Assembly (NCBI RefSeq): GCF_018977255.1
Contig: NW_024704743.1
Location: forward strand, 8,682,001 to 8,746,000
Direction: 5' to 3'
Length of the DNA: 64,000 nucleotides
DNA from: Callorhinchus milii
Taxonomy: Eukaryota
Under the pieces are notes generated by a model. The model did no database searches, was not told the DNA's origin, and saw nothing but the letters and a program-made list of their open reading frames with translations. Position numbers and translations under genes: made by a program. The number at the start of each line of letters is the position of its first letter. Position 1 is the stretch's first letter. Positions 36,401 through 64,000 of this stretch are shown here, piece by piece.

Positions 36401-38248
36401 AACCGTGGCTTACTCACATTGTTGTGTTCTTATTGGATATTATGACTATAATGTGAAACAAAAACAAAAGTGCTTCTAACTCAGAGACAATACTGCTACC
36501 AGCTAAGATGACCCCTGCTATGAGTGTATTGGAAGTGTGTTGAGGAAATACTTTAAACTGCTGATTGGCATTTTTAATTAGTTTGAATCAAAGTGAAATT
36601 AGGGTGTAACTCTTTCAAAAAGGGAAGGTGAATTTCTTAATTAAAAAGCAGAAGGAAAGACTTATATTTTGTCTCCCTCTACTCACTGTTCAGTGTTCTC
36701 GTAATCTTCTTGTTGTTCTCACAGTGTCTCGGCGGGCACTTCAATGCAGTGGAGGAGTGTCAGAGTGTCATAATAATAATAATAATCCTTGCTTTTAATA
36801 TAGCGCTTTATCATGTCTTCTCGACGTCTCAAAGTACTTCATAGAATACACTGTAAAGTTAATTGACTGTGTTTTGTGGGCGAAACGTGGCAGCCAATTG
36901 CGCACAGCAGTGTCCCACAAACAGTCGTGGATTAAGTGAGCAAATTTTTTTTGGGAATGAATTATTACCTCCAGAAAAGCGATCTTGTCTATAATATTCA
37001 AACAAAAGTGATTCTAACCCAGAGACAACACTGCTACCAGCTCAGCTGACCCCTGATGTAAGTGTATTGAAACTGCATCCCTGAGACCCGGTGAAACTGA
37101 TCGCCACATGGCTGTTTGTTGGATGTTGTTAAGTGCTAAATGGCTGCTGTGTTTACCTCCAAAAACAGTTTAACAGAAACTACTTGTGAAGTGTTTTGGG
37201 GCATAGCAATGTGATAAATCATCATAAAAATGCAAGTACTTTCAGGCCTTTCGAAGGCCTAAAACCATGTGTGCTGCTCATGCCATAGCAGTTTCCTGAT
37301 GCCTCCCCAGTTTTATTTGGAGGTGCAATAAAAAATAAACAGGAATAGGATTAGGTCATTTGGCCCATCAAGGCTAGTTCGACCACTTTATCAGATCCTG
37401 GCAGATTTTTAAAAAACATTTCCCTTTTCTCCATGTTTCCTCAATACCAGCTTTCTATTACCTCTACCACTCTCACTTTAACTTGCTTTCATGGGTTTAC
37501 CTATCATAACTAAAATGGGGGGCAGGAAGAATATACAGCTCTGCTCCTTATGAACGAGGAAGTGCAATTCACCTCTTTCTCCCGGAGTACCATTTCTGTA
37601 GGAAATGGAGTCAAACAGTACAGTGCTATTGAGATTAATGTAGCGCCTTTCAAGTCAGGAGGTTGTCTCAACGCACTTTACATAGCCACCTGGGCACTCA
37701 AGCTAAAGGAGGGAACTGAAGAAAATAAAGGAGGGAGGAGGGAAAGATTATCAAAAGCATTGTCAATGACTTATGTCTTGAAAATGCTCTTTGTTTTGGA
37801 GGTAATAACAAGTTACCAAGTTCACATCTGGTTGTTACCATCAGTCTCAGTTACAGGCACGCTATTGCAATAGAACCGAGCAAAGGTTGACAGAGATTGA
37901 ACACAGGATGGGTGGGGATGTGGGGGTTAACACCTTGGGAATAGAATAGGAGTTTGTGTATGTTGAGAGAAGGGGAAGGGAGGGGCTTGGAGAGCTTGAG
38001 GAATCGCTGCTGCGGGATTGTGCAACATCACAGAAAGAGAAAGCAGCTAAGAAGTTTGTGATCAGAGATAAAACACCTCCTGACTTGTCACACAAGGAAT
38101 GAGAATCACAGCACTTCCAGAACCTCACAAGCACCGGCAGAATACAAATGGAAGTCGGAGCAGCTGTAACTATTGACTTTATATATTTTTAAACTGTTTT
38201 CTGCCTTTGATAATTAATATTCTGCCTGTCTCTGCCTTGCCTTTTCAG

Positions 38249-41919: not shown

Positions 41920-41989
41920 ATGTATTTGAAGCATATCTTGTGCGCGGTGCTGGTTTGCTGCTGGATTCATCATGGATATGCTCAATTGG
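41920..41989 (+). CDS. ITGB1-like: First coding exon, signal peptide [23 protein letters not shown]
   Basis: Polypyrimidine tract + CAG immediately followed by ATG, hydrophobic leader, G|GTAATT donor, phase 1 joins the next exon in frame. Confidence 0.85.
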
Positions 41990-44900
41990 GTAATTCCTTT
42001 CAACTAACAAAGTTCAACCTGAAGGATATCATCCCGTTCAAAATATTCCAACATGATCAATATTATTTGTTTTGCCCACGAAATATACAGTCAATTCACT
42101 TTACAGTATATTCTGTGAAGCACTTTCAGATGTGATAAGGCGCTATATCAAATGCAATGATTATTCTTATTATTACTGCATATGAAATCTGCAACTCACC
42201 TGATGGCTCAAGGAATGTTGCAAATTTGGATTCCATGACCAGGGTCAGGAGCCATTTGATCTAGCTTGTCTGAGTTCGAATTCTTTTTTCAGGTTTCTGG
42301 CTGCTGTAGAGGATAGGAGTCCCAATGTGGAAACAAAAACAGAAGTCGCTGGGAACACTCAGCAGGTCAGGTAGCATCTGTGGAGAAAGGAAGTGACAAA
42401 GGGTCGTGGACCCGAAACATTGACTCACTTTCCTTTCTCCACAGATACTGCCTGACCTGCTGAGTGTTCCCAACGACTTCTGTTTTGTTTTCAGATTTCC
42501 AGCATCTGCAGTATTTTGCATTTTGTTTAATATAGTAATGTGGTTTCCTGATCCCGATTACTGTGTACAAATTGGCTGCTGTGTTTCACCTACAAAACAC
42601 GCAGTCACTCACTTTACAATAAATCCAGTGAGATAATTTGAAGTGTTCTAATTATGTGAAAGGTGCTATATCAATTGCAAGAATTATAATTATTATTTAC
42701 CATTGGGCTAGTAACTATCCGAGGGTAATAATAAATCATAGCAGGGTGGTGATTTCTGACACGATAGTATGTACCTGTAGAACAGAACAACAACAAAATT
42801 ACATTTGTAAAATGCCTTTCACCATGGCAGGACATCCCAAGGTGCTGGACAGAGTTAATAATAATAATAATAATAATCCTTGCATTTGATATAGCACTTT
42901 TCATATCTTCTAGACATCTCAAAGGGCTTCACAGAATAGACTGTAAAGTTAATTGACTGTATACTTGTGGGCGAAATGCGGCACACAGCAGTGTCCCACA
43001 AACAGTCGTGGATTGAAATGACCAATTTATTTTTTCTTGAGGATTATTATCAGACGTGTGGAGTAAGGAAACTTGCCCAAGGTTTCATCCTGCCGGGAAT
43101 CGAACCCAGGAATCTTGCTTGCAAAGCGAGTGCTCTAACCACTGAGCTACAGGACTCCACAGGACTCGAGTTACGGACCCGAGCTGGGGGGCCAGGTTGG
43201 GGAAGGTGGAGGGCAGCGGGGAAAGCACGGTCGAAGAGGAGGGTCTTGAAATGGGTCTTGAAGGTGGCAAGGGAGGGGCTGAGGCGGAGGGACTGCAGGA
43301 TGGAGTTCCGGAAGGTGGGGGCAGAGTGGCAGAAGGCCCGCCCCCCCAGTAGTGTGGCAAGCGAGGTGGGGATGTGAAGCAGGCTGGAGGGAGCTAGCAG
43401 GATGGTAGGGAGGTTTAGGCGGTCGCAGAGGTAAGGGGAAGCAAGACTATGGAGGGCTTTGAAGGATCTTGAACTGTATCCTCTGTGTGATGGGAAGCCA
43501 GTGGATTCAGGCGAGGATGGGGGTGATAGGGTCGCGGAGCCTAGTGTGGGAGAGGACATGGGCTGCAGAGTTCTGGATGAGCTGCAGCCTATGGAGGGAG
43601 GAACAGTCCATTACTATTTCCAAGCAGAGGAAGTGCATGGCAATGAGCAAAAACAGGCAGATGAGCAGACAGTTCAGATTTAATTAGTGATGAACATGTG
43701 GAATGGACTACCAGAACTGCAGCTAGAGGCAGATTGTATCCACAAAGTCAAGAAATAGATAGTTGTTTGGCGAAGATTTCATTTGAGGGAAATAAAAAAT
43801 AATAATAATAATCCTTATATTTTGTATAATACGGTTTCATGTTGGGAGGAAGTCCCAAACCACTTCACAGGATATACTGTCCATACTGTAATGGACCAAA
43901 GAAGCCCATTCAGTAATCCTAAAGTTAGAAAAGATAATAAAAACAAATAATCCTACACTACTTTATGTCTCTTGGCACACAGTCCCTGCAAGACTGTGGA
44001 GGGTTTTGAGGACGAGGATTATGATGGGTATCCGATGGAGCCGGGTGAGGCTGGGGGTGATTTGGTCATGGAGCCTGGTGTGGGCGAGGATGTGAGCTGC
44101 AGAGTTCTGGATGGTCTCCAGTTTGTTGGCCAACAAGCACGGAGTTCGTGTATTCGAGCCTAGATGTGATAAATGCGCGGACGAGGGTTTTGGCAGCCTG
44201 AGGGGAGAGGCAGGGGCGGAACCAGGCGATGTTGTAGAGGTGGAGGAAAGCAGAGAGATAGAGTTGGGTGTTATCCGCATACACGTGGAAGATGTCTGTG
44301 GATGATGTCACCAAGAGGGAGCATGTGAAGTGTAGTGACTATATTTATAGGTGAAGTGGCTATATGTAGGGGAAAACAATAAACGATTTTGATCACTTGC
44401 AATATCCCACAAACAGCCATGAAGCGAATGAGCAATATTATCTGAAGGATTGTTGACCAGAAACACTGGCAGAAAAGAACTGTCCTAGTCAAGTTGAATT
44501 GAAAAGAAAATGATTAATTTGTAAACCTTAAGAGATTCCTGATTTTATCCACTTTTAATTAATTGCATGGATTAAAACAGATCTAAATTTCTAATCCGGG
44601 AGAACCAGAAATTTTGCTAGATGTAGTTATGTTGTATAGTTAAACAGTTTTAGCACTTGTGAATGACTTGTGAATGTGAATGACTATAGTTGCTGTGGTC
44701 TCAGTTTGCCTTTTCATCTTTCAGCTACCAATGAGTGTTTAAAAGCCAATGCAACTTCATGCGGGGAATGTATACAAGCTGGTAAGAATTGTGGATGGTG
44801 CATGAAAATAGTAAGTACATTCATTTGATGTGCATGGACGATAAAGTCAATTTAAGGAGTCCTATAGCTCAGTGGTTAGAGCACTGGCCTTGCAAAGGAG

Positions 44901-47900
44901 AGACCTGGGTTTGATTCCCGGCAGGTTTCCTTACTCCACACGCCTCATAATAATCCCTCAAAAAAAGACACAATAAAATTGGTACTTCAATCCACGACTG
45001 TTTGTGGGACACTGCTGTGCGCAATTGGCTGCCAAGTTTCGCCCACAAATATACAGTCAATTCACTTTACAATCTATTCTGTGAAGTGCTTTGAGACATC
45101 TAGAAGATGTGAAAAGCGCTATATCAAATGCAAGGATTATTATTTCTTATTATAAGTTGTTGTTACTGTCTGAGCTTCTTTTAACAATAACCTTTTCAAA
45201 TCCAAGCAGGATGACATGTGAATGATCCATGTCATAAGTTTTTCAAGTACAAGTGACACAAAATGATCTTTATCATGACATTTGTAATGTTTAATCAGGA
45301 GTGTGATTATAGTATGGAGTATCTTATAAAGTAATTAATAAATTATAACTAAATAAATAGCACATCACAAGATCAGAAGGTCTGTTTGGATGAAGAAGGC
45401 CCTTCGGCATTTTGATCTCATTCTTCCATACTTTTCTATTGTCTCTATCAAGGTACTCAATGAGGGAACACTCATAGCTTCGGACCTGAGGTTTCTTACA
45501 TTTTCCTTGCATGTCAGTAGTTGGTGCTCAAACTATAATAATAATAATCCTTGCATTTGATATTGCGCCTTATCATGTCTTTGAGACGTCTCAAAGCGCT
45601 TCCCAGACTATACTGTAAAGTGAATTGACTGTATGCTTTGTCTGCAAATCGCGGCAGCCAATTGCGCACAGCAGTGTCCCACAAACAATCATGGATTGAG
45701 TGACTTTTTTTAATATATGTTTTGAAGGAATTATTACTCCCGGAAAACTAAACTTTTGTCTTTTTAAAACAACTGAAAATATAGGATATTTGGATATGTT
45801 ATAACGGCTTGGCTTGAGATGGCTATGATCTCTAACCTTCATTTTCACATATGCACCTCTGGAACCTGCTTGACTGTCCTCCCTCCCCCCTCTCTGCTCG
45901 AAGTCAGGCTCTGTCACTGTTAAATGCTCCGAAATGCTGCCCCGCGTGAAAGGCTCCGTATGAATGCAAGTTGTTGTTGTTGTTGACCATGTGGCTAGAA
46001 TGTCAGATAGCAAGAATGGAAATTTACTGCTGCAACGACCTAGAAGCACAATGTGTAATCGCTTGAAGGAGCTATTTGTTTTAACAGATAGTCTAGCTCC
46101 TTCAAGCTATTATTTCTCCCCTCATCCACCACCCTGCCACAACTTCCCTTGGGTAATGAACTGTTTAGATACTTGCTGACTTCAGTAAGTCCACAACAAT
46201 TTGATTGTTACCAGTGCCTGGAGTGCGTTCACTTTTATTCCTCTCGGGAGAATCGCAGACCTTCCAAGTGAATTTCAAAAGTGTTGAGAACTCTTGATCT
46301 CTATTATTTGAACCTATCTACAGTAGTTACTGCAAATCACCAATGGCTTTTGAATGTGCTCTTAAAATGTGGATGCGTTTAGCAAGAGTATATCGTCAAC
46401 ATCTAATGCTGAGGGTATGGAAGGATGAGACGAAATGAAGGGCCTTCTTCATTCAAGCCTCTCTTGTGATGTTGTGAAATCAATATTGCTGGATTTTGAC
46501 AGATTGTTGTTGACTACTAAACAAACGTAAGGGAATTTCTGCAAGTTTTAATCTGTGTTGGAGTGAGTGAATTTGCCTTGATTTGCTATCTTTACAGGAT
46601 TTTGTGCAGTATGGAGTACCAAACTCAGTGCGATGTGATGATCGAGAATCACTTGTGTACCGAGGATGCCCAAAGCGTTACATTGAAAGTCCCAAAGGCT
46701 CACAAAGAATATTTGTCAATAAAATTCCGTTCCGCCGTTTGAGTGGTGAGAAGATGAAACTGGAAGACATCATACAAATTAGACCACAGAAGCTTTCCCT
46801 AAAATTGCGATCAGGTAATTTCAATAACAACAACTTGCATTTATATAGCACCCTTCACATGGGGCAGTGTCTCAGAGTGCTTAACAGTGACGGAGCCTGA
46901 TCCCGAGACGGGGAAGGGGAGGAGGTGACCGTAAGTCGAAGTGGAAGGTTTTCAGTCATGATCTGAAGGTGGAGGGATTGAGTTCCAAAGCTTTTGGGTG
47001 TAATGGCTGAAAGCAAGGCTGTTGATGATGGAGTTGAGGGGATGAGGAACGAACAGGAGGCCAGAGAAGTCGAGCGGATGCAGTGGGTAGTGGAGTGGGG
47101 AGAAAGCAGGTCAGAGAGGTAGGGAGGTGCCAAGGCATGAAGGGATTTGTAGACAAGTGAGAGGATCTTGACATCCGTTCTGTGATAGGGAACTAGCCAG
47201 TGGAGCCTGGTGAGGACTGGTCTGATGGGGGTATGGAGTTTAGTGCAGGTGTGAATTTCAATAACAGTAAAGATGGGAAAATGCTGCAGGAGAATTTTTA
47301 CTTATTTTGTGTGCATTCCTCATAGACATTATTTATTCACCGTCAGTTGTCCATGTGGAGTCCCATTGCGCATTGGCTAGAATACTCGCCTTGCAAGCGA
47401 GAGGCCCTGGGTTTGATTCCCAGGCTGGGCGAAACAACAACAAAATTACATTTGTATAGCGCCTTTCATGTCGGGAGGCCGTCCCAACCTTAGGCAACTT
47501 TCCTTACTCCACATACCTGTTCACCTAACAGTAAGTAGGAACCCGCTTGTTAATCGATTGGTGGATTGCTTTCCCTTCAAACAAAAGTGTGGCAGCCCTA
47601 ATTGCTGTTGTTTTACCCCAACTGTAAATCAATTACATTACCATTTGGGTCACCCAGTGACAAGAATTGCATTAGATGACTAGATTACATAATAGTTTTC
47701 TTACCAGTAGAGCTTTAGACTTCAGGACATCTATACAAATGCAAATTACTGTACACATTTACATTTACACTGTGCCTTTCACATTGGGAGGACATCCCAA
47801 AGCTCTTAACAGTGCTGGTTGGACATCCGAGCTGGGGGTGGGAACTGAGGAGTTGGGGAGGGGAAAGATGACCGAAAGCAAGGTCAAAGAGATTGGTTTT

Positions 47901-50900
47901 GTACTGGACTTTGTCAGAGTTGATGGAGTCAGAGGGACTGGGATGGAGCTCCAGAGAGTGGAGGCAGAGAGACTGAAAGCCCGCCCGCCAATGATGGGCG
48001 GGCTTTCAGCCAATTTCTGGACATCCTGAATTGCTAGGATAATAGAGTAAATCTAGCCCCAAGTGGAATTTACTTATCCCCTATCCCCTGGTCTAGTGAT
48101 TTTGATGATGCTGTGCATGTGGGGGGGTGGTGTGGTGGGGGTTGTTGGGAAGATGAGTATCTTATACTAACTGCTAAAATTTGTCATTTTAAAAAAAAAA
48201 TTACAATATCTTTACAATGGGAAATCTAGATTGATAGCATAGTGGTTTGTTAGTGTAAGGATGAAAATGATCAAGTTTCCTGGTGGACTGAGTTGGGAGA
48301 GGCTGAAGAAACAGAAATGACAGGCAAATAGTCAAAATTTGGGGGTTGGTGGGGGGAGTAAAGAAATTCCATGTGGGGCTAGTTCTTAGCAATTCATTGT
48401 GTCCAGAATTTGGCAAATTGGGAGAATCTCTACAATTTAACATGTTGGACATAATGAAGACAGTCCTTTCACCATAAAAGTAAAGAACTAAAATCCTCTT
48501 ATTGCAACCCGCCCTTGGAAAAATGTGCCTGAAATATATCACCCTTGTAATCCTGTGCCAGTTGTCTTTTAGAAAGACCTGTATATTTCAGATATCCTGC
48601 TCCTAACACTGAAGGTACCTAAAATCTTGTACTTTTATCCTCAGGAGAACCACAAATCTTCCCACTCAATTTCAAAAGAGCTGAGGACTATCCTATTGAT
48701 CTATACTACCTCCTGGACCTTTCTGCTTCAATGAAAGATAATTTGGAAAATGTAAAGAGGTTGGGAACAGATTTGGTGAATGAAATGAGGAACATTGTTT
48801 CTGATTTTAGGATTGGTAAGAATTTCTGTTTAGTTTCTGATTTCCACTCTTTAAGTAGTTGCTCCCTCACCCCTTTCAAGATGGTCTTGTTATGGTTCAC
48901 ACTCTGGTTCCTGGCTCAAGTGATTACTCTTCAGTGAGTCTTAATAGGCTATTTGACCATCGTGGTGAGATCAATTGTAATTATTCCATCTGCAGGCAGA
49001 TAACAGTGCAGATTGGACCTGGGATATTCAGGTCTGAATGGCTCAATTGCACTCTAGCTAATGGCTTTAACAAATGGCCCACTTGGGCGGCTGCACCTTT
49101 ACATTATATCTCGACATCTAGTAACAGTAATCACATAATTTCGAAGTCCCCACCCTCCCATTACTTGTATTCAATGACCTCCCTCCTGAAACTGAATGAT
49201 TTGGGTAAGGTTCATATAAAGTTGAATTGTATGTGGTATCCAGAGAGAGTGAACTCGACAAGCATGTGGAGTGTGTTTTTTTCTTTTTCTATATCTTTTA
49301 AAAACTCTTACGTTTTCCACTCTTTAATGTTTAATGTTGGCTGCATTTTGTCAGAAGTTGTTCCAGTAAAGTAAGATGTTATCCTATATGAAAGGTGGCT
49401 TACTAAACTGTTGTTACCCTGCAGGGTTTGGCTCCTTACATAAAAACACTTGTAAAGCTGGCGAACAGTGTACAAATCCATTCAGTTTCCGAAACGTGTT
49501 GCCGTTGACCAGTGACATCGGTAGGTTTAAAGCAGTTGTGAACGAGCAGACTGTGTCTGAAAGCCGAGACCCTGCAGAAGGTGCTTTTGATGCTATAATG
49601 CAGATTGCTGTCTGTGAGGTGAGTACAAAAATCCATGGATGAACAAAGTTTACAAGATTTATTGGAAATTCTATTTAAACAACAACCCAATGAGTAAATC
49701 TGAAAGCAGGATTCAAAGCAATACAAAATCATTGAAATACAATTTATATTCATATAGCCCCTTTCACATTGGGAGGATATCTCAAAACATTTCGCACCGC
49801 TGGCTGGATGGGACAAAATAGTTTTTGCTTGCAGTAAAATTTGGAAGGTGCAATTCCACTGGTAATGGATGTCACTGCACAATGGAGATGTGGGTAGATG
49901 TATTGACACTTATACAACAACAACAACAACAAAATTACATTTGTATAGCGCCTTTCACGTTGGGAGGACGTCCCAAGGTGCTGGACAGACAGAGTTTTGG
50001 ACTCGAGCTGGGGGTTGGGATCAGGCAGGGTGGAGGGCAGGGGGGAAAGGTGGGTGATCAAAAGCACGGTCAAAGAGGAGGGTCTTGAGATGGGTCTTGA
50101 AAGAGGCAAGGGAGGGGACGAGGCAGAGGGTTTGCAGGATGGAGTCCTAGAAGGTAGGGGCAGAGTGGCAGAAGACCCGCCTGCCAATAGTGGGGCGAGT
50201 GAGGCAGGGGACGTGAAGCAGGCTGAGCGGAGGGAGTCAGCAGGATGGAAGGGGGTTAAGAGGTCACAGAGGTAGAGGGGAGCAAGACCATGGAGGGCTT
50301 TGAAGGTGAGGACCAGGATCTTGAACTGTATCCTCTGTGTGATGGGAAGCTCGTGGAGTCGGGTGAGGATGGGGGTGATAGGGTCATGGAGCCTGATGCA
50401 GGAGAGGACACGGGCTGCAGAGTTCTGGATGAATCTGCAGCCTATGGAGGGAGGAGTTGGGCAGGCTGACAAGCAAAGAGTTTGCATAGTCAAGCCTCAA
50501 TGTAATTAAAGCGTACATGAGAGTTTTGGCGGTCTGTGGAGTGAGACAATAGTGGAGCTGGTCGATTTTGCAGAGGTGGGGGAAGGCATAGCGAGTCATG
50601 GCTCAGACATGGGGTAGAAAGGATAGTTGAGGGTCAAACAAGACCCCAAGGTGCCGGACTGGCTAAGTAAGGTGGAGGGTGCAACCATGGATGGCTATAT
50701 TTCACTCCTTGTCTTAATTGTTGAGAATAATTAAATAATCAAATTAATAACAGTGAAATCCTTACTAGCAAGCTAAACATCAGAATTTTCTACATTGACT
50801 TTGGGTCAAGTGACATGAGAGGCTTATTGAATGATGCTCTGCCTTGTTTTAAGAAGGAACTGAGACTGTCCCTCATATCAAAAAGACTGTGAAACACAGG

Positions 50901-53900
50901 TTTACACAGTACACATAATATACCCTATTGATCAGAATAAAGAAAAGATTAAACCAAAAATTATAATCGTGAAAACGTTAAGGATGCAGAATGTGAAGCT
51001 AGTATTTCCACTTCTAAACAGACATGGCTGACAACCCAATTATCTCTGGTCATCTTTTCACCCCTACCTCTCTTGAATCTAACCTTCTGCTGGCCAGAGC
51101 TTTGGGACGTCCTCTTGATGTGAAATGTAAATGTAAGTTTGTTGTTGTTGTAATGGGAAGCCAATATGGTGGGATACTATGGAAAAATTATATTGAATGG
51201 AGCAAGGGAGCATCTTTCTGTCCTTCAGCTGAGAAGTTAAACCGAGATCTAGTCTGCCTGTTCAGGCGGATGTTAAAGATCCTCTGTTATGGCTTGTAAA
51301 AGAGAAGGGAGTTTTTCCCGGTGTCCTGGCCAACAATCTCCCAAATAAAATTGATCACTTCATAGCTGTTTGTGGTACATTGCTATGTGCAAATTGGCTG
51401 CTGCATTTGCCTACAAAATACATTTCACAGAAAAATTCTATGAACCTTTGGGACTTCCTTCTAACATGACAAGGCATTATAACAGGTGCAAGGATTATTA
51501 TGTTTACCATTATTATTCATCCCTACATCTCCTGTGATTTCTTGTAAATTTCTGTGATCACTTACCTCTAATACCTTACTTGTGATTTTGTGAAAAACTC
51601 TGTATTTTACAGAATGAAATTGCCTGGCGAAATGCCACACGCCTCCTCGTCTTCTCTACAGATTCAGGATTTAATTTTGCTGAAGGTGGTGATATTGGTA
51701 GCGTGTTGCCAATTGATGCTGGATGCCAGCTGAATCCTCAGGGTTTCTACACAAAGAGTGGCTATGATGTAAGTTTGCTAGTTAATCTTGGAAGCCAGAT
51801 CAGCTCAATCTTCTCAACTTATATTTTAACAAAAAGACGAGCTTCAACCTACCTTATTTGCAATACCTTGAGTTGTGTAAAAACATTTTACTGAACCTAG
51901 TCCAGATCGAGGTGATTCAATTACAATTCCCATTAACGTCTGCTTTAATCAAACGCAGCCTGTGAATTAGTACTAACTTGGTAAAGATCTTCAGAAATTG
52001 TATACACGGTGGTGATTAGTGGGGAAACTTAAATTGTATGAGTGCATTAGGCTGAGTCAGTCTAGGGAAAGCTCTGCTTTCAACTGATGGGTGACAAGCT
52101 TGAAGCTACATAAGATCCTGGTCTACAAAATACACAGTCAAAACCACTTTACAGCATATGGTGTGAAGCTCTTTGATGACTTGATAAGACGCTATATCAA
52201 ATGCAAGGATTATTATTATTAGAGATGATTTGACAAATACCCTTCATAACAACGCTTAATTGCCCAAAGTAGTGCAAAACAACTCCAATTTGAGGATTTT
52301 GTGATATCTAAGGATAGAAGCAAAAACATGTTATGCATGACCATTTGTTAATGATAATAATCCTTTGATATAGCATTTGATATAGCGCCTTATCACGTTG
52401 TTGATATGTCTCAAAGCACTTCATAGAATATATTGTAAAGTGTATTGACTGTGTATTTTACGGGATAAATGCACCCACAAATTTGTTGATTTGTGAAATG
52501 GGTGCAGTAATCTTTCTGGGTTGAAGTTAATGATACCCGGTTAGTACTGTATCCCTGAATGGCAATCACCAAGACTGCAATCCTGTTAATACAATCATCA
52601 CAAGCACTGAGGAGGGATCTTAAGTAATGATCATTTAAAGCTGTTAAAGTGCCTGAACAATTTGATTTAGCATTGAAAACTAATGACCTGAAGAGTGTTA
52701 GTCTCGATATTGTCACCTCCTTAATACTTAGTTTGCTCATCGCTTTGAAGTTAATGAGTTCATTCTTGGAAATCTAAAGCAGATAATACTGCCTAAGTGT
52801 CTAATGTACCTTTCAGCTGAGTCTCCGGGGTCTATTTTATGATCAACTAGTTTCTACAACTTTACAATGGGAACATTGTAATAAATTGATAATTCTCTGA
52901 TAACCAAATCATTGTAAAATAATACCCACTGAACAGTGTGAAATAAAACCCTCTAATTATCTGTTTCTTCTTTTCTTTCCTCATATTTCCTTCCCCAAAT
53001 CAGTGAACTGAAGCAACTCCACAGACAATAAGGCATTCAATTTCTTGTCTCAATGTACTGGTCTGTCTGTGTTCTATGTCAGGGTGGTCCAACCATTTGG
53101 CTGCCATGGGCCGGATTCCCTATTTGAGAAAGGTCCACGGGCCGCATCCAGCCTGGGCCAGCTGAGGGCCCACAGGCCACATCTGGCCAGTGATATAATC
53201 CAGCCCGAGACCATTTCCAACATTCCACCTTCTGCTCCCTGCCTGGTGAACGTTTTCCCAGGGCAGCAGTGGGAACCAGAGGTTGAGGGACACTCAGCAT
53301 GGAGAGTGGAAATAATACCGGCCATTACTCCAGTCTGTCAGGAAGGCAAGCGGGTCTCTTACCATCTTACCAACCATGTCCTTAGCAACAGACGTGCAGA
53401 TAGTGAACCGGAGAGAGAAGGATTGGGGGTGGGGGGGAGTGGAGAGAGGAAGGGGGAGGGGGAGAGAGGAAGGGGGGAAGCAGGTGGAGAGAGGAGGTGG
53501 AGAGAGGAAAGGGAGAGAGGAAGGGGAGAGAGAAAGGGGGGAGGACGGAGGGGGGAGAAGAAGGGAGGAGCGAGGAGGGCTGTGTCTCTCCCAACCGCCG
53601 GCTCCTACCATTACCCTGGGAGGATGTTCACCAGGGAGGGAATGGAAGGTGGAATGTTGGAAATGGTCTTGGGCCGGAAAAAATCACCCGCCAGGCAACT
53701 TGTTGGACCCCTCTGGTCTATGTCACAAATTTACTGATTGTCTGGCTTACCTCTTGTTAAATAACTAACTTCACTAATCCCTTTCTTGGTTACTGCAAAT
53801 TTCTCCCTGATGTAGTAGGTCCCCAATTTTGATTGCATGTTTTTTACACACCAAGTTAGTGACTACTTTTCACAAAAATGGGTTTTAGAGTTGGTCAATT

Positions 53901-56900
53901 TTTTGTACTAAATTCTTTGAACAACTTGTATTTTAGATTCACTTGAACTTCCAAAACATTTTTGTTCACAGGATCATCCATCCATTCCTCATTTGGTACA
54001 GAAGCTCACTACCAATAATATTCAGCTCATTTTTGCTGTTACAAAACAGTCCCAGGCTGTATATAAGGTAAGATGTACTTCCCAAAAAATATACATGAGG
54101 GAAGAAGCAACCTAGAATCATGGACATTAAACCACAGAAGGAGGCCATTTAGTCCATCATGATTTTAGCTTCTCCACTGGAGTTATCTACTCGAGTTGCT
54201 ACTCTAATTTCTTCCCCACACATATTTTGTAAGACAGGCATCAGATCCAAACAGAAACCCACACCATGCTTCAGAGTTTCCAAATCACTGAGTGTTCTCT
54301 GGTAGTAGGGTTTCCATTTGCCTGGTACAGAGTGTGCACTTTCTCCCCGGAGGAGCACACCCTTCTTATCTAACCCTGGAGAGTTTAGGTACAGGTTGGC
54401 AAGAGTCCAGGCTTAGAAACCCCAGAATGTACATTTGGATACTGCTGGAGTTTAACCAGATAAAACTTGCAACTTACTATTGCAAACATTGGCAAGTTTT
54501 CTGCTGCGTATCTAGCCAGGACCACTATTATTTATTAGAGATTTTGGCTTGCAGAAGTGCTGAATGGGAGGAAACTCCTACCCCAGTGTCTGGTGTGCTT
54601 CTCAAAGTCCTGCTAATAAGCTTTATTGTCTAATCTATCATCAACAGTGGTTTGGGGTTGTATGGACCTGTTTGGTTCAGGTATTGGATTATTGAGCATT
54701 AACTAGATTTTGGTCTCCCGTTGCCTGGTGTGTCATCATGGAATCAACTCAAACCCAAAAAGAAGGTGCTTAGTTCTAACTCCACTAAGTCACCAGTTGG
54801 ACATTAGACATCCGATAAGTGCAGGTTTCAGCTTTTTGGGGTCAGCAAGGTATTTGACACAATTGGAAAGCCATTACGGTGTCTAAGGGTATCCAAACCA
54901 AACTGAGAGTTCCATATATTGCATCTATACATATAAATTTCCTGAGATATTTATTGGAATGAAAAGCGCACTCTCTCGCTGGAGGGATGCATCCTGCTTA
55001 TCTAATTCCAGAGAGTGTTAGGTGCAGGTTGACAAGAGCCAAGGTCCAGAGTGTGCATTGGGGTACTGCCGGAATCTAGCTAAAACTGCATAGCTTGCCA
55101 TTGTCCAGCTCTACCGGTTAGGGCTTTCATTTGCAGGGTTAATGGGAGGTGAGTAGGACGAGTCCCTGGCCTCCTGAGCAGCACAACTCATCCTAACTCA
55201 ATCTGTGAGAACATTGGCATGGTCCTCCTTTCTTACTCGAGCATTTTTTATTTTGTAAATGTTATGTTCTATATTGAGCATTTAAAAAACATTGCTTTCC
55301 CTGTATTACTTGCTTTTCCTCAAGGGAGTGTTGATATCCACCCTCTTCTTGGTCCCGAAAATTAACTTTTAGTGAACAACCCAGAGGCATCAGGTCTAAC
55401 CTGCCTGATTTCTACAGAATGTACCTGCTCCTGCACAAAGCACTAATTGCCTGTTATCTCCTTCCTGGCTAGGGTCCACTGACTACCCAGAAAATACACA
55501 CAGTCACACCACTTTACAGCTTAACCCAAGAAGCACTTTGAGACACCTTGACGACATAATAAGGTACAATATCAAATGCAAAGATTATTATTATTACATC
55601 TAAGTGTCTTTTGGTAGGAAAGTGCTTAGGAATTGGGTCCATGTATCATTTAGGCTATTGTATGATTTATAACGAGATAACTTATGCGAGTTTTACTGTG
55701 TTATTACCTGTCTCCCAGTAAACTGTGTTCTATCCTTAAAGTACATTGAATGTCCTCTTTCGTCTACTTATACTCCTGTGTACTGTTTATCTGGTGCTAT
55801 AATTTCTAAACCATATTCCCACCCTTCTTTCCAATGTCTTCCAGGGAACAATTATTACACTGTTGGTCACCTCTCCCTGTAATTTTTCCTACTTTCATTC
55901 AGAAGAGATTCAGCTCTCTTTATGCCTCATTGATTCAAGACTTGGGACCATCACTGTTGCTATCTTTTGTGCTTGAGAGTGTCGACACATGACCTTCCCC
56001 AAATGACATTCCCAGAATGATGTACATAACCAGATAGAAAATGGAAAGATAATAATGTTGCTCTACTTCAACAGGCACTCCGTGATCTCATTCCAAAATC
56101 TGAAGTAGGGGTTCTGTCATCCAATTCAAGCAATGTAATTAAGTCAGTCCTCGATGCTTATCATGTAAGTATTGTCCATTAAAGTAAATCTCATCTGCTT
56201 CAAAATCAGTTTGGCTTCCTTTGACATTCCAGTGCTTGCAAATGTAATGTTCTATTTTTGTTATCCGATGCAGGCTTTATCTTCTGAGGTTATCCTAGAG
56301 AACAGCAAATTACCAGAAGGAGTGACGATAGATTATACAGCCCACTGTAAGAATAATACTGTCTACAAAGGAGAAGATGGCAGAAAGTGTTCAAGCATTC
56401 AGATTGGTGACGAGGTAAGTAAGAGATCTGTGCAAAGGTAATAATAATAATAATCTTTGCATTTGATAAAGCGCTTTTCATGTCTTCTCCACGTCTCAAA
56501 GCGCTTCACAGAATAGACTGTAAAGTGAATTGACTATATATTTGTGGGCAAACCGCGGCACAGTTAGGGCACAATTGCGCACAGCAGTGTCCCACAAACA
56601 GTCGTGGATTGAAAATGACCAATTTATTATTGTTTTGTTTTGGAGGGATTATTATTAGGCGTGTGGAGTAAAAAACTTGCCCAAGATTTCGCCCTGCCTG
56701 GAATTGAACCCAGGTATTTCGCTTGCAAAGCAAATGCTCTAACCACTGAGCTACAGGCTACAGTTAGGAATTTTTGTTTTGTTTAGCTGGTATCTGAGAT
56801 ATGTGAAAACCTATCACCATGCTTAAGATTATCCAAAGAATACTAAGAGTTTTACAAGTGCACGTTTGGAAATTTCCCTGCATCTGGAATGGAATGTACA

Positions 56901-59900
56901 CTCTCTCCCCCTAGAGGAGCCCACCAAGCTTACCTAATAATACCAGAAAATATCAGGCAAAGTTGGCAAGGCTTGAAGATAGTGTGTTGGGGTACTTGGA
57001 GTCTAACCAGTTAAAATCGTATAGCTCATCATTGTGAATGAGGTCTGGTAAGTTTCCCACAGCTTGTCCAGCTCGTACCGCCCTAACTGGTGTTGTCTTG
57101 CAAAGTTAACAGAAACTGAGCGGGAAGAATCCCTGCCCCTAGGGACCAGTCTGCTCTTCTGACCTTCTGATCTTCATCCATGCCGATGAGGCAGGATGGC
57201 AGATCTGTCATCAGCAGTGTACCGCAGGCCTGCCTGGCTCACAGACCAGACTACCAAGACTGCCACAGAGGGTTGACTGGATTCTGATATTTTGTTGCCA
57301 AGCATGTCACCTTGGAGCCAGCTCAGTCCCAAAGCGACCCTACTTACTTCTCCTCCCCGCCAAGGAAGATAATTACTGATTGGTTTGAGCCCTCACTAGA
57401 TAAGACTTACCAGGATTTACCAGCAAGCTTTGTGGTGAGCAGCACAGCTCTGCACAAAATGCATGAGAGCATAGAAGTATAATGCAATTGAATCCACTGC
57501 TCACACTGAAATCTTAGCCACAAATTGATCATTTCCCAACCAATGGAAATGTGATGTTCTGCTAAACAACTTGAGACCCAAGAAAATGTCTCTTTATCTG
57601 ATTTCTTCCATACGTAATGGGTCTAAGCTGGAATCAGCAATCTAAATGGAAAAGCTCTCCTTCCACCATATCTGGCTTGAAAACTTGGCAATTTCTGTTG
57701 GTTTAGAGCAGTGGTGGCCAACCTTTTTAGTCGTCCAACAAAATAAAATATCTTGATTAATATTCTATGATTCATGCCGTAAATCAAGATATACTCAATC
57801 AAGAAAAACTGAAAGAAAACACACTACCGATTGAACACGAGACTAGTGCAATTGTTTGGGAGGCCGCTTATTGACTGCCAGCTTCAGGTCTGTGGGTCAC
57901 AGGTTGGTCACCACTGGTTTAGAGAAAAGCAACATGGTTAATCCCTGGCTTTAGGATTTAAACTGCTATTTCTACGATCTCCTCCTACCCTACTGCTCTG
58001 TTTGCCCCCACTGATCAGCTAACTCTGGCTTCCTGCACATCCCCCACCCTTCCCATGCCAGCATCAGTAGCCAATTCTTTAGCCTCATCCTCTGGAACTG
58101 CCTCCCTCAACTCTTCCATCTGGCCCACTGTGTATCTGTCTTCAGGTCCTTCCTCAAAACATAGCTCTTTGATTGCACCCATGGTTAACTCTTTCCCCTT
58201 TCTCCCTTACCATTCTACATTATTCTACATTATATTTGTATATAAATACAATTTATTGTTACATTACAAAGAGGGGTTGAAACAGTTGGACTTATTTTCA
58301 TTGAAGAAAACCTACTGAGAGAGAATAGATCCTTAAAAAGCAGATACAACGAATAATGTGGATTATAGAATTGTAGAATGTTACAGTATAGAGGAGCTGC
58401 CACCAAACTGAAAACTGCCACCATCACGCCCACCCTGAAAACGTTTGACCTATAAAGTCTATATTGTTTTTTCCCTCCACATTGCCTAATACTAGGAATC
58501 AAGGGAATTCGCTCCGCGGTCACTTCCCCTCCAACATCCACCAACCCCCCACCCCCTCACTCCCACACTCCGACTGCAACCCATCCTCCCCTACTCACTT
58601 TTGTACCCGTTTCCCCACCCTCGGTCACGAAACTCATCCTATCCCTAAAACCAACCACCTGCTCCCTTGACCCCATCCCCACTCCACTCCTTATCTCCCA
58701 GCTCCACTTTCTTGCCCCACATATCACCGACATCATCAACCTGTCCCTCTCCTCTGGCTCTGTCCCCATTCCCTTAAAAACTGCCACCATCACGCCCACC
58801 CTGAAAAAACCCTCCCTTGATGCGTCGCAGCTATCAAGCTACCGGCCCATCTCCAACCTCCCCTTTCTCTCCAAGGTCCTGGAAAGAGTTGTCGCCTCCC
58901 AACTGCGCTCTTTCCTTTCCACCCATTCTCTTTTCGAACCCCTTCAGTCAGGTTTCCGTGCTGCCCATAGCACAGAAACTGCCCTGGTCAAGGTCACCAA
59001 TGATATCCTGACCATCTGTGACCAGGGCTCCCTCTGCCTCCTCGTCCTCCTCGACCTATCGGCAGCATTCGATACGGTCGACCACGCTATCCTACTCCAC
59101 CGCTTGTCCTCCCACCTCAACCTTCAAGGCACTGTCCTTGAGTGGTTTAGGTCGTACCTTTCTCACCGTCTTCACTTTGTCTCGACGAATGGCTTCTCCT
59201 CCACCCCCCGTACTGTCTCATGTGGTGTCCCTCAGGGCTCTGTCCTCGGTCCCCTCCTCTTCACCCTCTATATGCTCCCCCTTGGTGACATCATCCGCAG
59301 ACATGGAGTTAACTTCCACATGTATGCGGATGACACCCAACTCTACCTTTCCTCCTCTACTCTCAACTCCACGACCACCGATGTCCTGACAGCTGCCTGT
59401 CCGACATCGAGTCCTGGACGAGAGACAACTTTCTTCAGCTCAACGTGCGAAAAACCGAGGCCCTCCTGATTGGCTCACGTCAGCGCCTCCGCACCTCAGG
59501 CGCTGACACCATCAGCATCCAAGGCTGCACTCTCCACCTCTCAAAGCCAGTCAGGAACCTCGGCGTTTTGTTCGACCCTGAGCTGTCCTTTCTCCCTCAC
59601 ATCCGCACCACAACTGGCACCGCCTTCCATCACCTCCGGAACATCGCCAGACTACGCCACTACCTCACCCCTCACGCTGCTGAAACCCTGGTTCACGCCT
59701 TTGTCACCTCAAGGCTGGACTATGGGAACTCTCTCCTCCGGCCTTCCCGCCACCTCCCTCCACAAGCTGCAGGTCATTCAGAACTCTGCAGCTCGTGTAC
59801 TGTCCCGCACCAGGCTTCGGGACCACATCACTCCCACCCTCGCTCGCCTCCACTGGCTCCCCATCCCCCAGAGGATTGATTTCAAGATCCTCATCCTCAC

Positions 59901-62900
59901 CTACAAGGCCATTCACGGCCTCGCTCCCTCCTACCTCTCCAACCTACTATCCCCCTACCTACCTGCCCGTACCCTCCGTTCCTCTGGCTCCGGTCTGCTC
60001 CACGTCCCCCGCCCCAATCGCCCTACCATTGGTGGTCGGGCCTTCAGCCTCTCAGCCCCGAGGCTCTGGAACTCTATCCTCCAGTGCCTTCGCCTTGCTT
60101 CCTCCCTCTCCTCCTTCAAGGCCGGTCTCAAAACCTTTCTCTTTGACCGAGCCTTCAGCTCCCCTCTCGACTCTCTTCCCCCTTCTCGCTCCCTCCTATC
60201 CCTCCCCTCACCCTGACCATTTCCCCCCTCCTCGCTCCCTTCCCTGACCATTTCCCCCCTGCTCGGGTCATGACCCAACTGTGCAGCGCCTTGGGACGTC
60301 CTCCTGACGTGAAAGGCGCTTTATAAATGGAATCTTGTTGTTGATGTTGTTGTACTACTTTTCTGCTTGTTCCTAATTCCTTCAATATTCATCTATCTAA
60401 TTCACTTTAAAAAGAATTTAAGGACTTCGCTTCAAGAACAAATTGTGGCAAGGAACTCTACACTGAGTAGCCATCTTTGAGTAAAGCTTTTAATTTGGAT
60501 AGTGGGCTAGAACTGGAGAATGATAAGAATAATAACACCATTCACATTTGGAGGACGTCCCAAACTGGTTCATATGATATACCGTAAAGTGCAGTGACAG
60601 TGTGTTCTGTGGACGAATGGGAAGGAAATGAGAAATGAAAAGAAAAATACAAAGCTAATGACGCTAAGAATCAAAAGATTACTTTTTCTTCCCAGAGCAG
60701 AAGATATGTCAACAGAAATCCTACGAAAAATTGCTTTGCTAGACTCCTCCAAAATGGACTAGACATGGTTAGGAATACAATTGACAGCCGAAAAAATATG
60801 TGTAATAGGAGATGATTGAATACTATAGAATGTAAAGGCTCCTGAGCTGATAGAACTATGGAAATGTCACATTGTCAAGAACAAATAATGTAGTTTGTAA
60901 GTTGAATTATAAACTGGAACTTGCTTGGGTGGTAGTCAGAGGCATTGCTGAGTCTTTCCTCAGGAGATTAAATATGTTGTCTAGAGGCCATGACAGGCAG
61001 ATTGTCCGTTGTTCAATGCAACAAATGACCTTTTTTCTTTGCTTTCTTGTTATTTGCCCTGCAGGTTTTATAGGCTGAAGTCTATTTCATCCTTGGTTGT
61101 ATGGCTTGAATTCATAAGTACTAACCTTCCCCCATTGTAGTTTCACTGCTGTTTGAACGGACAACCACACAATTCATCAGGGTATGGTGGTCAGCGGGGG
61201 GAAAACCAAATTTTTCAAATACAACCTCTCCCCCCACCAAAAAAAGGAAATATGAAACTATGTGTGTGTGTGTGAAGGAGATAGGGGGGATGTGAAAGTA
61301 TGTGTGTGGAGGAGGTGGAGGAATGTGAAAGTGTGTGTGTGTGTGGAGGGGGGGTTATGAAGGTGTGTGGAGGTGGGGGGAAGGAGAATTATGAAAATGT
61401 GTGGGGTTGGGGGAGGGGGAAGTGAGTTATGAAGGTGGGTGGTGGAAGAGGGGGTTATGAAGGTGTGTGGGGAAGGAGGTTTATGAAGGTGTGTGGGGAA
61501 GTCGGTCTATGAAGGTGTGTGGAGGTTTGGGATGGGAAAGTGGGTTTATGAAGGTGTGTGGGGTAGGGGGATTATGAAGGTGTGTGGGGTTTGGGGACGG
61601 GAAAGGGGGGTTATAAAGGTGTTGGGGGAGGGGGGTTATGAAGGTGTGTGGGGCTATGAGAAGGGGGTTTATGAAAGTGACCGTGCCCTGGTCACGATCT
61701 GATGTAGAACCGTTTTTTGATGAATGGACGTTGGTCTAGGAAAACATTTTTGTAAATCTACAATACTATGCATTTGGTGCCTAATAGTTAGGTCTGCCCA
61801 ACTGCATTTGCTATTAGAAGGACAGACTCCAAGACATAACATCCTTAAAATCTGATTTTGATATGTCATTCGGTTTGCAATTGCAATGACAGGACCTTTC
61901 CACAATACTACTAATGATTACCACTCACAAAGCTTATCAGTTTCTGCCAAAGACTTTTGTTGGGCCATTTCCAAGGTTTAGGTATGATGGCCACTGTGAA
62001 TGTTATGACAGTCATAAAATAGTTAAGACAGCCAATGTTGTAATGTAATATTACATTGTAATTTCAGTTTTCTTGTAAATATTGTCCCTTCCCTGTGCAA
62101 TCAAATGAATGTGCAGCTCAGAGGGCTTCTCAGGTCTGTTTTTGCCTATAAAAACAGTCACTGCATTTGACAGTGAGTTAAATGTTTTGAAATGGTTCAA
62201 CATAATAATGTGCATGTTCTTTACCTCATTAATGCTGGTTGCTAAGAGGGATGTGAGATGCACTTAATTCCCCCTCCTCTTTTGCTCTTGTTTAGCATCT
62301 TGTAGTACTCATTGGGGAACTGATCTACAGTGCTGTCCATCCTTCTCAGTGTACAGGATGTTGCTTTCTAAAGTGCCACTAATTTTTTTAATGTCTTCAA
62401 CCAGCAGCTTATATAGTCTTAAAACTGCACTCAGTGAAGCTGCACCAAACTCCTCATATCCACCACCCCCGTCCTTGCTAATCTCCACTGTCTCTCAGTG
62501 GATTAATTTCAAGGTCCTCACCTACAAATTCATTCTCTCTATGGCATCTCCTTATCTCTCTGATCTTCTCCTACTCCTCCGCTTGGCTTCTCTGCTGTAT
62601 GTTCCCTGCCCTCTCTGCACCAGCATCAGTGGCCAAGCCTTCAGTTCCTACAGCCCGACCCTCTGGAATTCCTTCCCTCTACATCTCGCCTCCTCCCTTT
62701 CTGTTTGGTCTCAAATCTTTGAAGTGCCTACGTCCACCTCCCCTTCTCCCTTCTCAGTATCCACCCCCGTCTCTGAACGTGCTCCAAGTAGTTACCTTAC
62801 GTGAAGTACACTACATACATTTTTAGCTGGTTAGACTTCAGCAGTACCCCAAAACACACTATAGGGTCCCCAAGCCTTGGCTGTTGCCAACCTGCGCCTA

Positions 62901-63438
62901 ATACTTTCCAGAATTAGGTAAGTAGGATGTGTCCCTCCAGGGAGATAGTGCGCATTTCATTCCAACAATCTGTCTCTGCGATTTCCATGTGGAGGTGGGA
63001 TGCATAGTTACAATATCAGTTTAGTTAGGATACTCTTAAGCATGATGATGAGTTTCCGCATGGCAGATACCAGACTGATAACGCCCTCATAAAAAAACAG
63101 TTGTTATTGTTTACTCACCCCGGCTAATGTAAACATAAATATGGTTTTGTGATCTGACCATCAATGACACCACCTGCTTGGGAAGTACCTACAGAGGAGG
63201 ATACGCCACTTTTTTAAAACAGATCTTTTTCCCTTTAGGTGAGCTTCAACATACGTATTACAGCAAACACGTGCCTGGGTAAAGGAAAGAAGGCAACTGT
63301 TGAAATCAAACCGATAGGTTTCAGTGAGAGGGTCAAAGTTACCCTGAGGGTTATTTGTGAATGTGGGTGCCAAGAATTGGCTGTTGTTAACAGCCCAGAA
63401 TGTTACGGGAATGGAGCGCTTGAGTGTGGAGCCTGCAG
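41920..63438 (+). CDS. ITGB1-like: Integrin beta-1-like gene (divergent paralogue), 10 coding exons in window, 3' end beyond window: join(41920..41989,44725..44810,46598..46814,48645..48815,49425..49618,51613..51768,53972..54067,56075..56164,56274..56414,63239..63438)
   Basis: Manual splicing at GT-AG sites gives an uninterrupted 1421-nt frame: signal peptide, PSI ([16 protein letters not shown]), beta-I ([41 protein letters not shown]), hybrid and I-EGF1 (CECGC...[10 protein letters not shown]). Exon sizes 86/171/156/96/90/141/200 equal those recalled for human ITGB1. Confidence 0.93.
42857..43157 (-). mobile_element. Full-length SINE inserted in an L2 3' end
   Basis: Reverse complement of the family; L2 tail on the left (42785-42856) and L2 body on the right (43160-43600). 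Confidence 0.88.
44725..44810 (+). CDS. ITGB1-like: PSI-domain exon (A)[28 protein letters not shown]
   Basis: ttttcatctttcag acceptor, ATA|GTAAGT donor, 86 nt, integrin beta PSI cysteine pattern. Confidence 0.95.
44856..45143 (+). mobile_element. SINE, same family, small internal deletion
   Basis: Head, body and ATT tail recognisable. Confidence 0.88.
46598..46814 (+). CDS. ITGB1-like: PSI/hybrid exon [15 protein letters not shown]...[14 protein letters not shown](G)
   Basis: tttacag acceptor, TCAG|GTAATT donor, 217 nt; RCDD, GCP and QIxPQxLxLxLR motifs of integrin beta chains. Confidence 0.95.
48645..48815 (+). CDS. ITGB1-like: Beta-I domain exon with MIDAS DxSxS ([57 protein letters not shown])
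   Basis: cctcag acceptor, G|GTAAG donor, 171 nt, very close to recalled beta-1 sequence. Confidence 0.96.
49425..49618 (+). CDS. ITGB1-like: Beta-I domain exon ([16 protein letters not shown]...[14 protein letters not shown]), 15 codons shorter than canonical beta-1
   Basis: ccctgcag acceptor, GAG|GTGAGT donor, 194 nt, frame preserved. Confidence 0.94.
49915..50690 (-). mobile_element. L2 LINE 3' fragment (further - strand pieces at 18460-18720, 34110-34830, 40915-41215, 43160-43600, 43985-44325, 46825-47250, 47750-48000)
   Basis: IQNSAARVL...[27 protein letters not shown] on - strand; CAA-repeat tail. Confidence 0.88.
51613..51768 (+). CDS. ITGB1-like: Beta-I domain exon [52 protein letters not shown]
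   Basis: ttttacag acceptor, GAT|GTAAGT donor, 156 nt, [13 protein letters not shown] motif. Confidence 0.95.
53080..53715. mobile_element. Non-autonomous hAT element with internal inverted repeats, 636 bp
   Basis: TIRs CAGGGTGGTCCAAC / GTTGGACCCCTCTG; 8-bp TSD TTCTATGT / GTCTATGT (7 of 8 match). Confidence 0.8.
53972..54067 (+). CDS. ITGB1-like: Beta-I domain exon [32 protein letters not shown]
   Basis: ttgttcacag acceptor, AAG|GTAAGA donor, 96 nt; matches beta-1 DYPSIAHLVQKL..NNIQ.IFAVT. Not in the ORF track. Confidence 0.94.
56075..56164 (+). CDS. ITGB1-like: End of beta-I domain [30 protein letters not shown]
   Basis: caacag acceptor, CAT|GTAAGT donor, 90 nt; LIPKS.VG.LS.NSSNVI motif. 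Confidence 0.94.
56274..56414 (+). CDS. ITGB1-like: Hybrid-domain exon [28 protein letters not shown]...[12 protein letters not shown]
   Basis: tgcag acceptor after a 109-nt intron, GAG|GTAAGT donor, 141 nt. Confidence 0.95.
56439..56757 (-). mobile_element. Full-length SINE, same family
   Basis: Reverse complement of the family, about 25 bp after an exon donor. Confidence 0.88.
57709..57916. mobile_element. Non-autonomous hAT (Charlie-like) MITE, 208 bp
   Basis: TIRs CAGTGGTGGCCAACCT / AGGTTGGTCACCACTG and perfect 8-bp TSD GTTTAGAG (57701-57708, 57917-57924). Confidence 0.92.
58510..60352 (+). mobile_element. L2-clade LINE, 5'-truncated, reverse transcriptase C-terminal half plus 3'UTR, frameshifted
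   Basis: [18 protein letters not shown] and YADDTQLY motifs, [23 protein letters not shown], (TTG)n tail; frames switch near 59395 and 59735. Confidence 0.93.
61260..61680. repeat. Degenerate GT-rich tandem repeat (TATGAAGGTGTGTGGGG core)
   Basis: Core recurs about ten times with G-rich spacers. Confidence 0.85.
63239..63438 (+). CDS. ITGB1-like: Hybrid/I-EGF1 exon [12 protein letters not shown]...ICECGCQ...[12 protein letters not shown](R)
   Basis: ttttccctttag acceptor, AG|GTAGGT donor, 200 nt, CECxC and GNGxxECGxC motifs. Confidence 0.95.
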
Positions 63439-64000
63439 GTAGGTCACTAACCTGGCTACGAAGCAGTAATAGTAAAATTAGCCAGAGCGCTGAAGGAGTA
63501 ATGAATAATAATAATCCTTGTGTTTGATATAGCGCTTTGCCACATCATTGAGACGTTTCAAAGTGCTTCACAGAATATACTGTAAAGTGAATTAACCCTA
63601 TATTTTGTGGACGAAACGCGGCAGTCAATTGCGCACAGATAGTTATGGAATTGAGTAAGGAAATTTGCCTAAGCTTTTGCCCTGTCGGGGAAGGGAACCC
63701 AGGTCCTTTCGCTTGTGAAATGAGTGCTCTAACCAATACTGAAATTGTTAATCAAGACAGGAAACCAACCTAGAATATATGCTGACATCACCTAGAGGGT
63801 AATTTGATTCACCGTTCCTTCAGTACGAGCACTTCCGTAATGGTCCCTTCAAAGCTGCAATAAATGGCTCAGTATCATTACAAATAACGTTATTAAAGCT
63901 GTCAGCAATTTAAATGACTTTAAATGAAAACCCGAGACATCTCACCTAGTCTTAGTCTGTAAATCGATTTAGTCTTCAAATTTAAGATCATATTAAAAAT

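Follow-up and report, generated by a model that had tools for sequence, protein, structure and literature searches.

An anchorless, loop-deleted integrin beta-1 paralogue of cartilaginous fishes with an acidic docking residue in Callorhinchus milii

Introduction

Pactolus, a rodent protein derived from integrin beta-2, lacks the specificity-determining loop and is not known to have an alpha partner; its MIDAS is broken and it has a membrane-bound form. An artificial beta-1 construct made by Takagi and colleagues in 2002, in which this loop is deleted, is said to retain the DGKL finger and is reportedly secreted without an alpha chain. In the excerpted text of a later article that cites this work (PMC3206902), loop-less beta-1 is described as pairing with alpha4 and alpha5 and not with alpha6 and alphaV, and the cited title of Takagi et al. 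(2002) names both autonomous expression and alpha association.

The closest natural case is found in zebrafish. According to the excerpted text of Mould et al. (2006; PMC1538996), beta1tr-1, -2 and -3 lack the transmembrane (TM) segment and the tail, have a 9-residue loop deletion and DGKL substitutions and have lost the LIMBS; the authors inferred that these proteins pair weakly or not at all with alpha chains and may be secreted. As to the assembly of receptors, an excerpt of a preprint (bioRxiv 10.64898/2026.10.25.761699) states that the Arg/Lys finger of the beta chain inserts into the alpha propeller and that its mutation disrupts beta-3 or beta-2 pairing. The same excerpt reports that TM association promotes assembly of the alpha/beta head in the ER and that ERAD removes wild-type beta-1 left without a partner.

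Here we describe an ITGB1 paralogue of Callorhinchus milii that resembles these proteins in several respects. It was found in a window of 64,000 nucleotides (NW_024704743.1, positions 8,682,001 to 8,746,000), for which an earlier note had drawn attention to a charge reversal at the docking residue of the finger.

Results

The paralogue lies head-to-head with canonical ITGB1

The spliced frame of 14 coding exons is identical to RefSeq XP_007907120.1 (706 aa, Callorhinchus milii) from residue 7 on. The features are as follows (positions in the window unless a contig prefix is given):

41920..64000, + strand: part of the ITGB1 paralogue located in the window; exons 11-14 lie past the window end at G000:C2:8746275-8751757
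C2:8680441-8659449, - strand: canonical ITGB1, head-to-head with the paralogue, 1.6 kb before the window
41920..41989, + strand: coding exon 1, predicted signal peptide (KD19 hydrophobicity peak 1.78)
44725..44810, + strand: coding exon 2 (PSI domain)
46598..46814, + strand: coding exon 3 (PSI / hybrid)
48645..48815, + strand: coding exon 4, MIDAS DxSxS intact, ADMIDAS D138->N
49425..49618, + strand: coding exon 5, 194 nt versus 239 nt in the canonical gene, with an in-frame 45-nt deletion inside the exon
51613..51768, + strand: coding exon 6, 156 nt, 3 nt shorter than the canonical exon; betaD-alpha5 finger loop
53972..54067, + strand: coding exon 7 (beta-I domain)
56034..56419, + strand: coding exons 8 (56075-56164) and 9 (56274-56414) with their intron, a likely gene-conversion tract
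63239..63438, + strand: coding exon 10 (hybrid / I-EGF1)

All introns are GT-AG, the frame is open over the 14 exons, and the phases of exons 1-13 are the same as in canonical ITGB1, the protein of which is 67% identical to that of the paralogue. Signs of a pseudogene (stops, frameshifts, broken splice sites, neutral evolution) are absent from the 14-exon gene. The terminal exon encodes Glu-Asn-Cys-stop, and an AATAAA is located at C2:8752294.

The joint between the last-domain exon and the stop-carrying exon (GT..AG) is present in four of four runs from two studies, in assembled contigs that we presume to derive from RNA. None of the holders listed in a run search is registered as RNA, which counts neither for nor against transcription. 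Exon 12 (223 nt, L009:834-1056 = G000:C2:8746834-8747056) is included in one run and skipped in the contigs of the other three. The skip corresponds to RefSeq isoform X5, a frameshifted product of 583 aa that has 33 cysteines and whose stop lies 135 nt ahead of the last junction. The splicing of exons 5 and 6 is taken from RefSeq models and orthologues.

Alternative upstream first coding exons are annotated at 17660-17725 (RefSeq isoform X3) and 38148-38165 (X1); in X3 the upstream exon replaces the signal-peptide exon. Intron 2 holds a degenerate second copy of the beginning of exon 4 (46233-46306), which is 76% identical to the canonical gene. Reverse-transcriptase-like ORFs, which we take to be a LINE-type repeat, lie in intron 9 (58456-59879), with many shorter copies across the window. 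The canonical gene has, besides its usual last exon, an alternative tail exon at G000:C2:8662472-8662398 (L018), presumably of the beta-1D type.

An aspartate occupies the docking position of the finger

The codon at 51691..51693 (+ strand) is GAT and encodes Asp in the column of beta-1 Lys269, the Arg/Lys finger residue, which we take to be equivalent to R261 of beta-3. The translation of 51670-51702 was aligned to FHFAGDGKLGG of human beta-1 (residues 262-272 of the chain, numbered on the basis that the 4wjk_B alignment begins at 240) and carries His263->Asn, Asp267->Gly and Lys269->Asp; G266E is a further change in the finger loop, and D259 is kept. Among solved structures, the best match of exon 6 is integrin beta-1 (E 2.5e-10). 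The Asp and the changed His and Asp ahead of it had both been described in the earlier note, and both were confirmed by the translation and by the register of the orthologues. The alignment had also been described as free of gaps, which is true of the 11 residues quoted; a 1-residue gap directly downstream had been missed.

This deletion (exon 6 has 156 nt instead of the 159 nt in canonical ITGB1) adjoins the finger stretch, and the register is therefore ambiguous from the pairwise alignment alone. Orthologues that keep DGK carry the same 1-residue gap after it, which places the Asp in the K269 column; whichever register is used, the finger loop of the paralogue contains no Lys or Arg. The docking codon differs from the AAA of canonical ITGB1 by two bases and adjacent codons differ as well, which, together with the register, rules out a sequencing error or a misalignment as source of the Asp. 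It is found in all 14 database isoforms of the paralogue gene, which may share assemblies of the same animal.

Acidic docking residues are rare among beta chains

Among 115 beta-1 proteins from outside the family, the docking residue is Lys in 114 and Arg in one. For a broader comparison 148 beta representatives were used, of which 138 aligned over the loop and the 10 non-aligning ones were dropped; here we found 93 Lys, 27 Arg, 17 neutral residues, one gap and again no acidic residue. Seven of the 17 chains with a neutral residue have a predicted TM helix. Over these 115 and 138 chains there was thus no alpha-pairing beta chain with Asp at this position, a case that the earlier note had named as counter-evidence. 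Leu at this position (DGLL type) occurs in eight of the 138 representatives (P0161, P0219 and six more), four of them with a predicted TM helix.

Nine beta genes were found in the genome of Callorhinchus milii. Seven have Lys at the docking position, the ninth is the paralogue, and one (L031), which from a sequence motif we presume to be beta-4-like, carries neither Lys nor Arg at this site, although alpha6 and beta4 form an ordinary heterodimer. An acidic docking residue is therefore rare, but the absence of a basic one does not conflict with what is known of chains that pair with alpha. DGK is kept in six teleost beta-1 models in which the loop motif was not matched (P0057, P0063, P0065, P0074, P0077, P0123), and the three of them placed in the tree cluster with bony-fish beta-1.

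The ectodomain is complete and the anchor is missing

The ectodomain comprises PSI, hybrid, beta-I, I-EGF and beta-tail domains with 56 of 56 cysteines kept, and its fold and domain order match canonical integrin beta-1 (PDB 7nxd_B, Foldseek E 2e-78). The deletion in exon 5 takes 15 residues of the specificity-determining loop, which is in contact with the alpha chain in canonical beta-1, and leaves the loop disulfide and MIDAS E229 in place. The MIDAS of the Callorhinchus protein is intact (D130, S132, S134, E229, D259). The SyMBS (E169, N224, D226, P228) is altered by loss of E169, N224->S and P228->A, and the ADMIDAS (D137, D138) by D138->N. In all 13 listed elasmobranch orthologues D259 is Asn, and E229 is lost in six of them.

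The TM helix and the cytoplasmic tail (PF08725) are lacking, and the C-terminal hydrophobicity (KD19) of the 706-aa protein is 1.11 versus 3.05 in the canonical protein. Searches of the 78 kb downstream by tblastn and blastn, with queries that recover the canonical exons, revealed neither a TM nor a tail exon. A stretch of the 3′ UTR that might be left over from the TM exon was unconvincing (local score 113, shuffle maximum 111). Some UniRef models bridge the loop gap by reading through into intron sequence (P0001, P0012, P0014) or carry an extra hydrophobic end, and these were treated as projection artefacts. Altogether, the paralogue departs from a receptor beta chain in anchor, loop, SyMBS and finger; neither the specificity-determining loop nor the Arg/Lys finger of a functional receptor chain is complete.

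A monomer model of the beta-I domain gave a pLDDT of about 76 versus about 62 for canonical beta-1, with both proteins modelled from the same 33-row alignment and means taken over 10-residue blocks; this lends weak support to a beta chain that folds as a monomer. Low confidence in the finger loop (residues 275-287) was dismissed as a sign of disorder, since the canonical control is equally low (282-297).

The paralogue is kept across cartilaginous fishes

Among the matches listed in two protein searches (the best 120 of 796 and the best 120 of 808) were 13 further family proteins of 621-760 aa from sharks, rays and skates. The paralogue is kept in at least 13 named species, spanning chimaeras, sharks and rays. 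The 15-residue deletion and the 1-residue gap occur in all 14 listed members, none of which has Pfam PF08725; 10 of the 13 listed orthologues end where the tail domain ends, and three models stop earlier or differently.

The finger is variable on this common background. The docking residue in the 14 listed members is Lys in seven, Arg in one, Thr in four rays or skates (P0055, P0129, P0134, P0136), Glu in the whale shark (Rhincodon, P0027) and Asp in Callorhinchus; 10 of the 14 retain His263 and eight retain Asp267. The Asp, present in one of the 14, was therefore rejected as a family-defining change, and the Lys-to-Glu change of the whale shark is independent of it.

In a 31-row maximum likelihood tree rooted with lamprey, from which the zebrafish beta1tr sequences are absent, the 14 members form one side of a branch (bootstrap 83, SH-aLRT 95) and are sister to cartilaginous-fish beta-1 (joint group 97/97). 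Shared indels are treated as missing data in the tree and are separate support for the family. The branch of the Callorhinchus paralogue is long (0.49). Over four matched species, identity of the beta-I domain is 59% in the paralogue versus 95% in canonical beta-1; the corresponding values are 45% versus 92% for the loop region and 50% versus 97% for the finger, and leg, tail and other domains are 56-67% identical within the family. In three species the paralogue and the canonical protein list equally long contigs. A literature search outside subscription journals and supplements listed no publication on the cartilaginous-fish paralogue.

Constraint and gene conversion

Comparison of the paralogue with canonical ITGB1 gave a dN/dS of 0.25 (697 codons; a simple Nei-Gojobori estimate from one pair, influenced by conversion) and about 0.2 in unconverted regions. 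The tract around exons 8-9 extends over 386 nt, intron included, and is 91% identical to canonical ITGB1, which suggests that patchy gene conversion between the inverted copies is likely. Conversion lowers dS locally and blurs the position of the Callorhinchus paralogue in the tree; exons 5 and 6 show no conversion signal. Similarity to canonical ITGB1 above background was also seen in the intron flanks of exons 1 and 2.

Discussion

A proposed secreted beta-1 ectodomain

The gene structure, the loop deletion, the missing anchor, the 3′ splicing and the conservation across cartilaginous fishes are all seen directly. The reading we favour, and consider somewhat more probable than its opposite, is that the paralogue encodes a beta-1 ectodomain which is secreted as a free chain and would fold independently of any alpha partner. 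Deletion of the loop might have removed the need for an alpha chain in folding and export, after which the alpha-facing finger could have drifted separately in each lineage, to Asp in Callorhinchus, Glu in the whale shark and Thr in the four rays and skates. Anchor and loop are lost in all listed members and the basic finger residue in some, and thus loop and anchor would have gone first and the finger later. The Asp would then be a symptom of a relaxed alpha interface and not its cause, and a D->K revertant alone would probably restore no receptor. An acidic finger might also stop the paralogue from capturing alpha chains destined for canonical beta-1.

What a free chain would do outside the cell is a matter of conjecture. 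Since SyMBS and loop are gone, we propose that it does not bind RGD ligands in the manner of integrins; given the intact MIDAS, the Callorhinchus protein may still bind a ligand in a metal-dependent way. As a guess, it could act as extracellular soluble binder, decoy or adaptor through the disulfide-intact PSI, hybrid and EGF leg. A single conserved function based on the leg is weakened, because leg and tail are only 56-67% identical within the family.

The earlier note had concluded that alpha pairing is lost or the partner different. This is partly supported: it fits the reports on finger mutations and the Lys of seven of the nine beta genes in the genome. Against a single residue as the cause stand the eight of the 14 listed members that keep Lys or Arg, which have the loop deletion and no tail just as the other six do, and also the beta-4-like gene and 17 of the 138 chains, which have no basic docking residue. 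The note had not mentioned the more far-reaching features, namely the 45 nt missing from exon 5 and the absence of TM segment and tail.

Alternatives to a free chain

Pairing might instead have been narrowed to a subset of alpha chains, of the alpha4/alpha5 type or with a changed propeller centre, and the product would act as a dominant-negative partner that does not signal, or form a soluble heterodimer. The alpha4 and alpha5 pairing of loop-less beta-1 in the excerpted PMC3206902, the beta-4-type chains without basic docking residue, the Lys or Arg in those eight members and the intact MIDAS of the Callorhinchus protein all agree with this, and some family members may still bind alpha chains. 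In the Callorhinchus member, however, H263, D267 and K269 have changed together and the loop is shortened, none of the 115 and 138 other beta chains has an acidic residue here, finger mutations disrupt pairing according to the preprint excerpt (bioRxiv 10.64898/2026.10.25.761699), and the paralogue has no TM helix to help assembly. We therefore regard subset pairing as unlikely.

The gene might also be a decaying duplicate that is transcribed but mostly gives misfolded, ER-degraded protein or transcripts lost to nonsense-mediated decay, with the Asp as neutral drift. Such a fate would account for the long Callorhinchus branch, the faster evolution of the whole family and the frameshifting exon-12 skip in three of four runs; it agrees poorly with an open frame of 14 exons, 56 of 56 cysteines, a dN/dS of about 0.2 in unconverted regions and retention in at least 13 named species of chimaeras, sharks and rays, and we consider it improbable. 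Attachment to the membrane through an unseen exon or anchor, as in an orphan surface beta chain such as Pactolus, is very improbable: the C-terminal stretch of UniRef models P0010, P0011, P0012 and P0014 is mildly hydrophobic and the Pristiophorus model ends hydrophobic (KD19 2.15), but these ends map to intron 13 and require a tiny intron jumping a stop codon, no joint into this stretch is among the best-supported joints listed whereas the stop-exon joint is in four of four runs, and the 706-aa protein has no C-terminal hydrophobic signal.

Integrin beta chains are held to leave the ER folded only with an alpha partner, and here an anchorless, loop-less beta-1 has long been kept in nature. 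The single Asp is of modest interest and the weight lies with the gene family: 14 listed proteins that have the loop deletion in common and carry Lys, Arg, Thr, Glu or Asp as docking residue. Such a series makes the contributions of loop, finger and TM helix to pairing and to alpha-independent folding testable, and likewise the question whether a free beta chain functions by itself.

Comparison with known systems

The Callorhinchus paralogue and zebrafish beta1tr, as far as the excerpted PMC1538996 describes the latter, are both separate tandem duplicates of beta-1 without TM segment and tail. In both, residues are deleted from the betaB-betaC (specificity) loop and the DGKL helix carries substitutions; LIMBS/SyMBS E169 is lost and the ADMIDAS is changed, while MIDAS and cysteines are kept. 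They differ in the number of deleted loop residues (15 in the shark family, nine in zebrafish) and in their ends, since beta1tr stops four residues after EGF-4 and the shark family keeps the tail domain. According to the same excerpt beta1tr derives from a teleost duplicate, whereas the shark family groups with cartilaginous-fish beta-1; the shared combination has probably arisen by convergence.

Mouse Pactolus / Itgb2l (PDB 2iue) has a 212-residue chain that matches residues 16-237 of the query and likewise has a shortened I-like domain. Unlike Pactolus, the shark protein is derived from beta-1, has no anchor and keeps the MIDAS intact in the Callorhinchus member; identity with Pactolus, which would imply beta-2 ancestry, was rejected on the best matches, which are beta-1, and on the position of the gene next to ITGB1. 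The engineered soluble beta-1 of Takagi et al. (2002) is, like the shark protein, an ectodomain without specificity loop, whereas the natural protein retains the loop disulfide and carries an acidic finger. From canonical ITGB1 the paralogue differs by the absent TM segment and NPxY tail, the deleted loop, the lost SyMBS and the remodelled finger.

Loop-less and TM-less models of unrelated beta chains (P0156, P0198, P0282, P0182), each a single automatic model, include ones from gopher, bonefish and burying beetle; the bonefish model ends at the tail-domain cysteine, as does the Callorhinchus paralogue. It is conceivable, and we put this forward tentatively, that the shark protein is a dedicated secreted, alpha-free beta-1 with its own extracellular ligand, kept since before the split of chimaeras and sharks and one of several independent origins. 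The recurrent recipe would then be deletion of the specificity loop, loss of the anchor and decay of the Arg/Lys finger, and zebrafish beta1tr and the gopher, bonefish and beetle gene models would be its other cases. If this is true, free beta chains would be a class of functional proteins that has arisen repeatedly.
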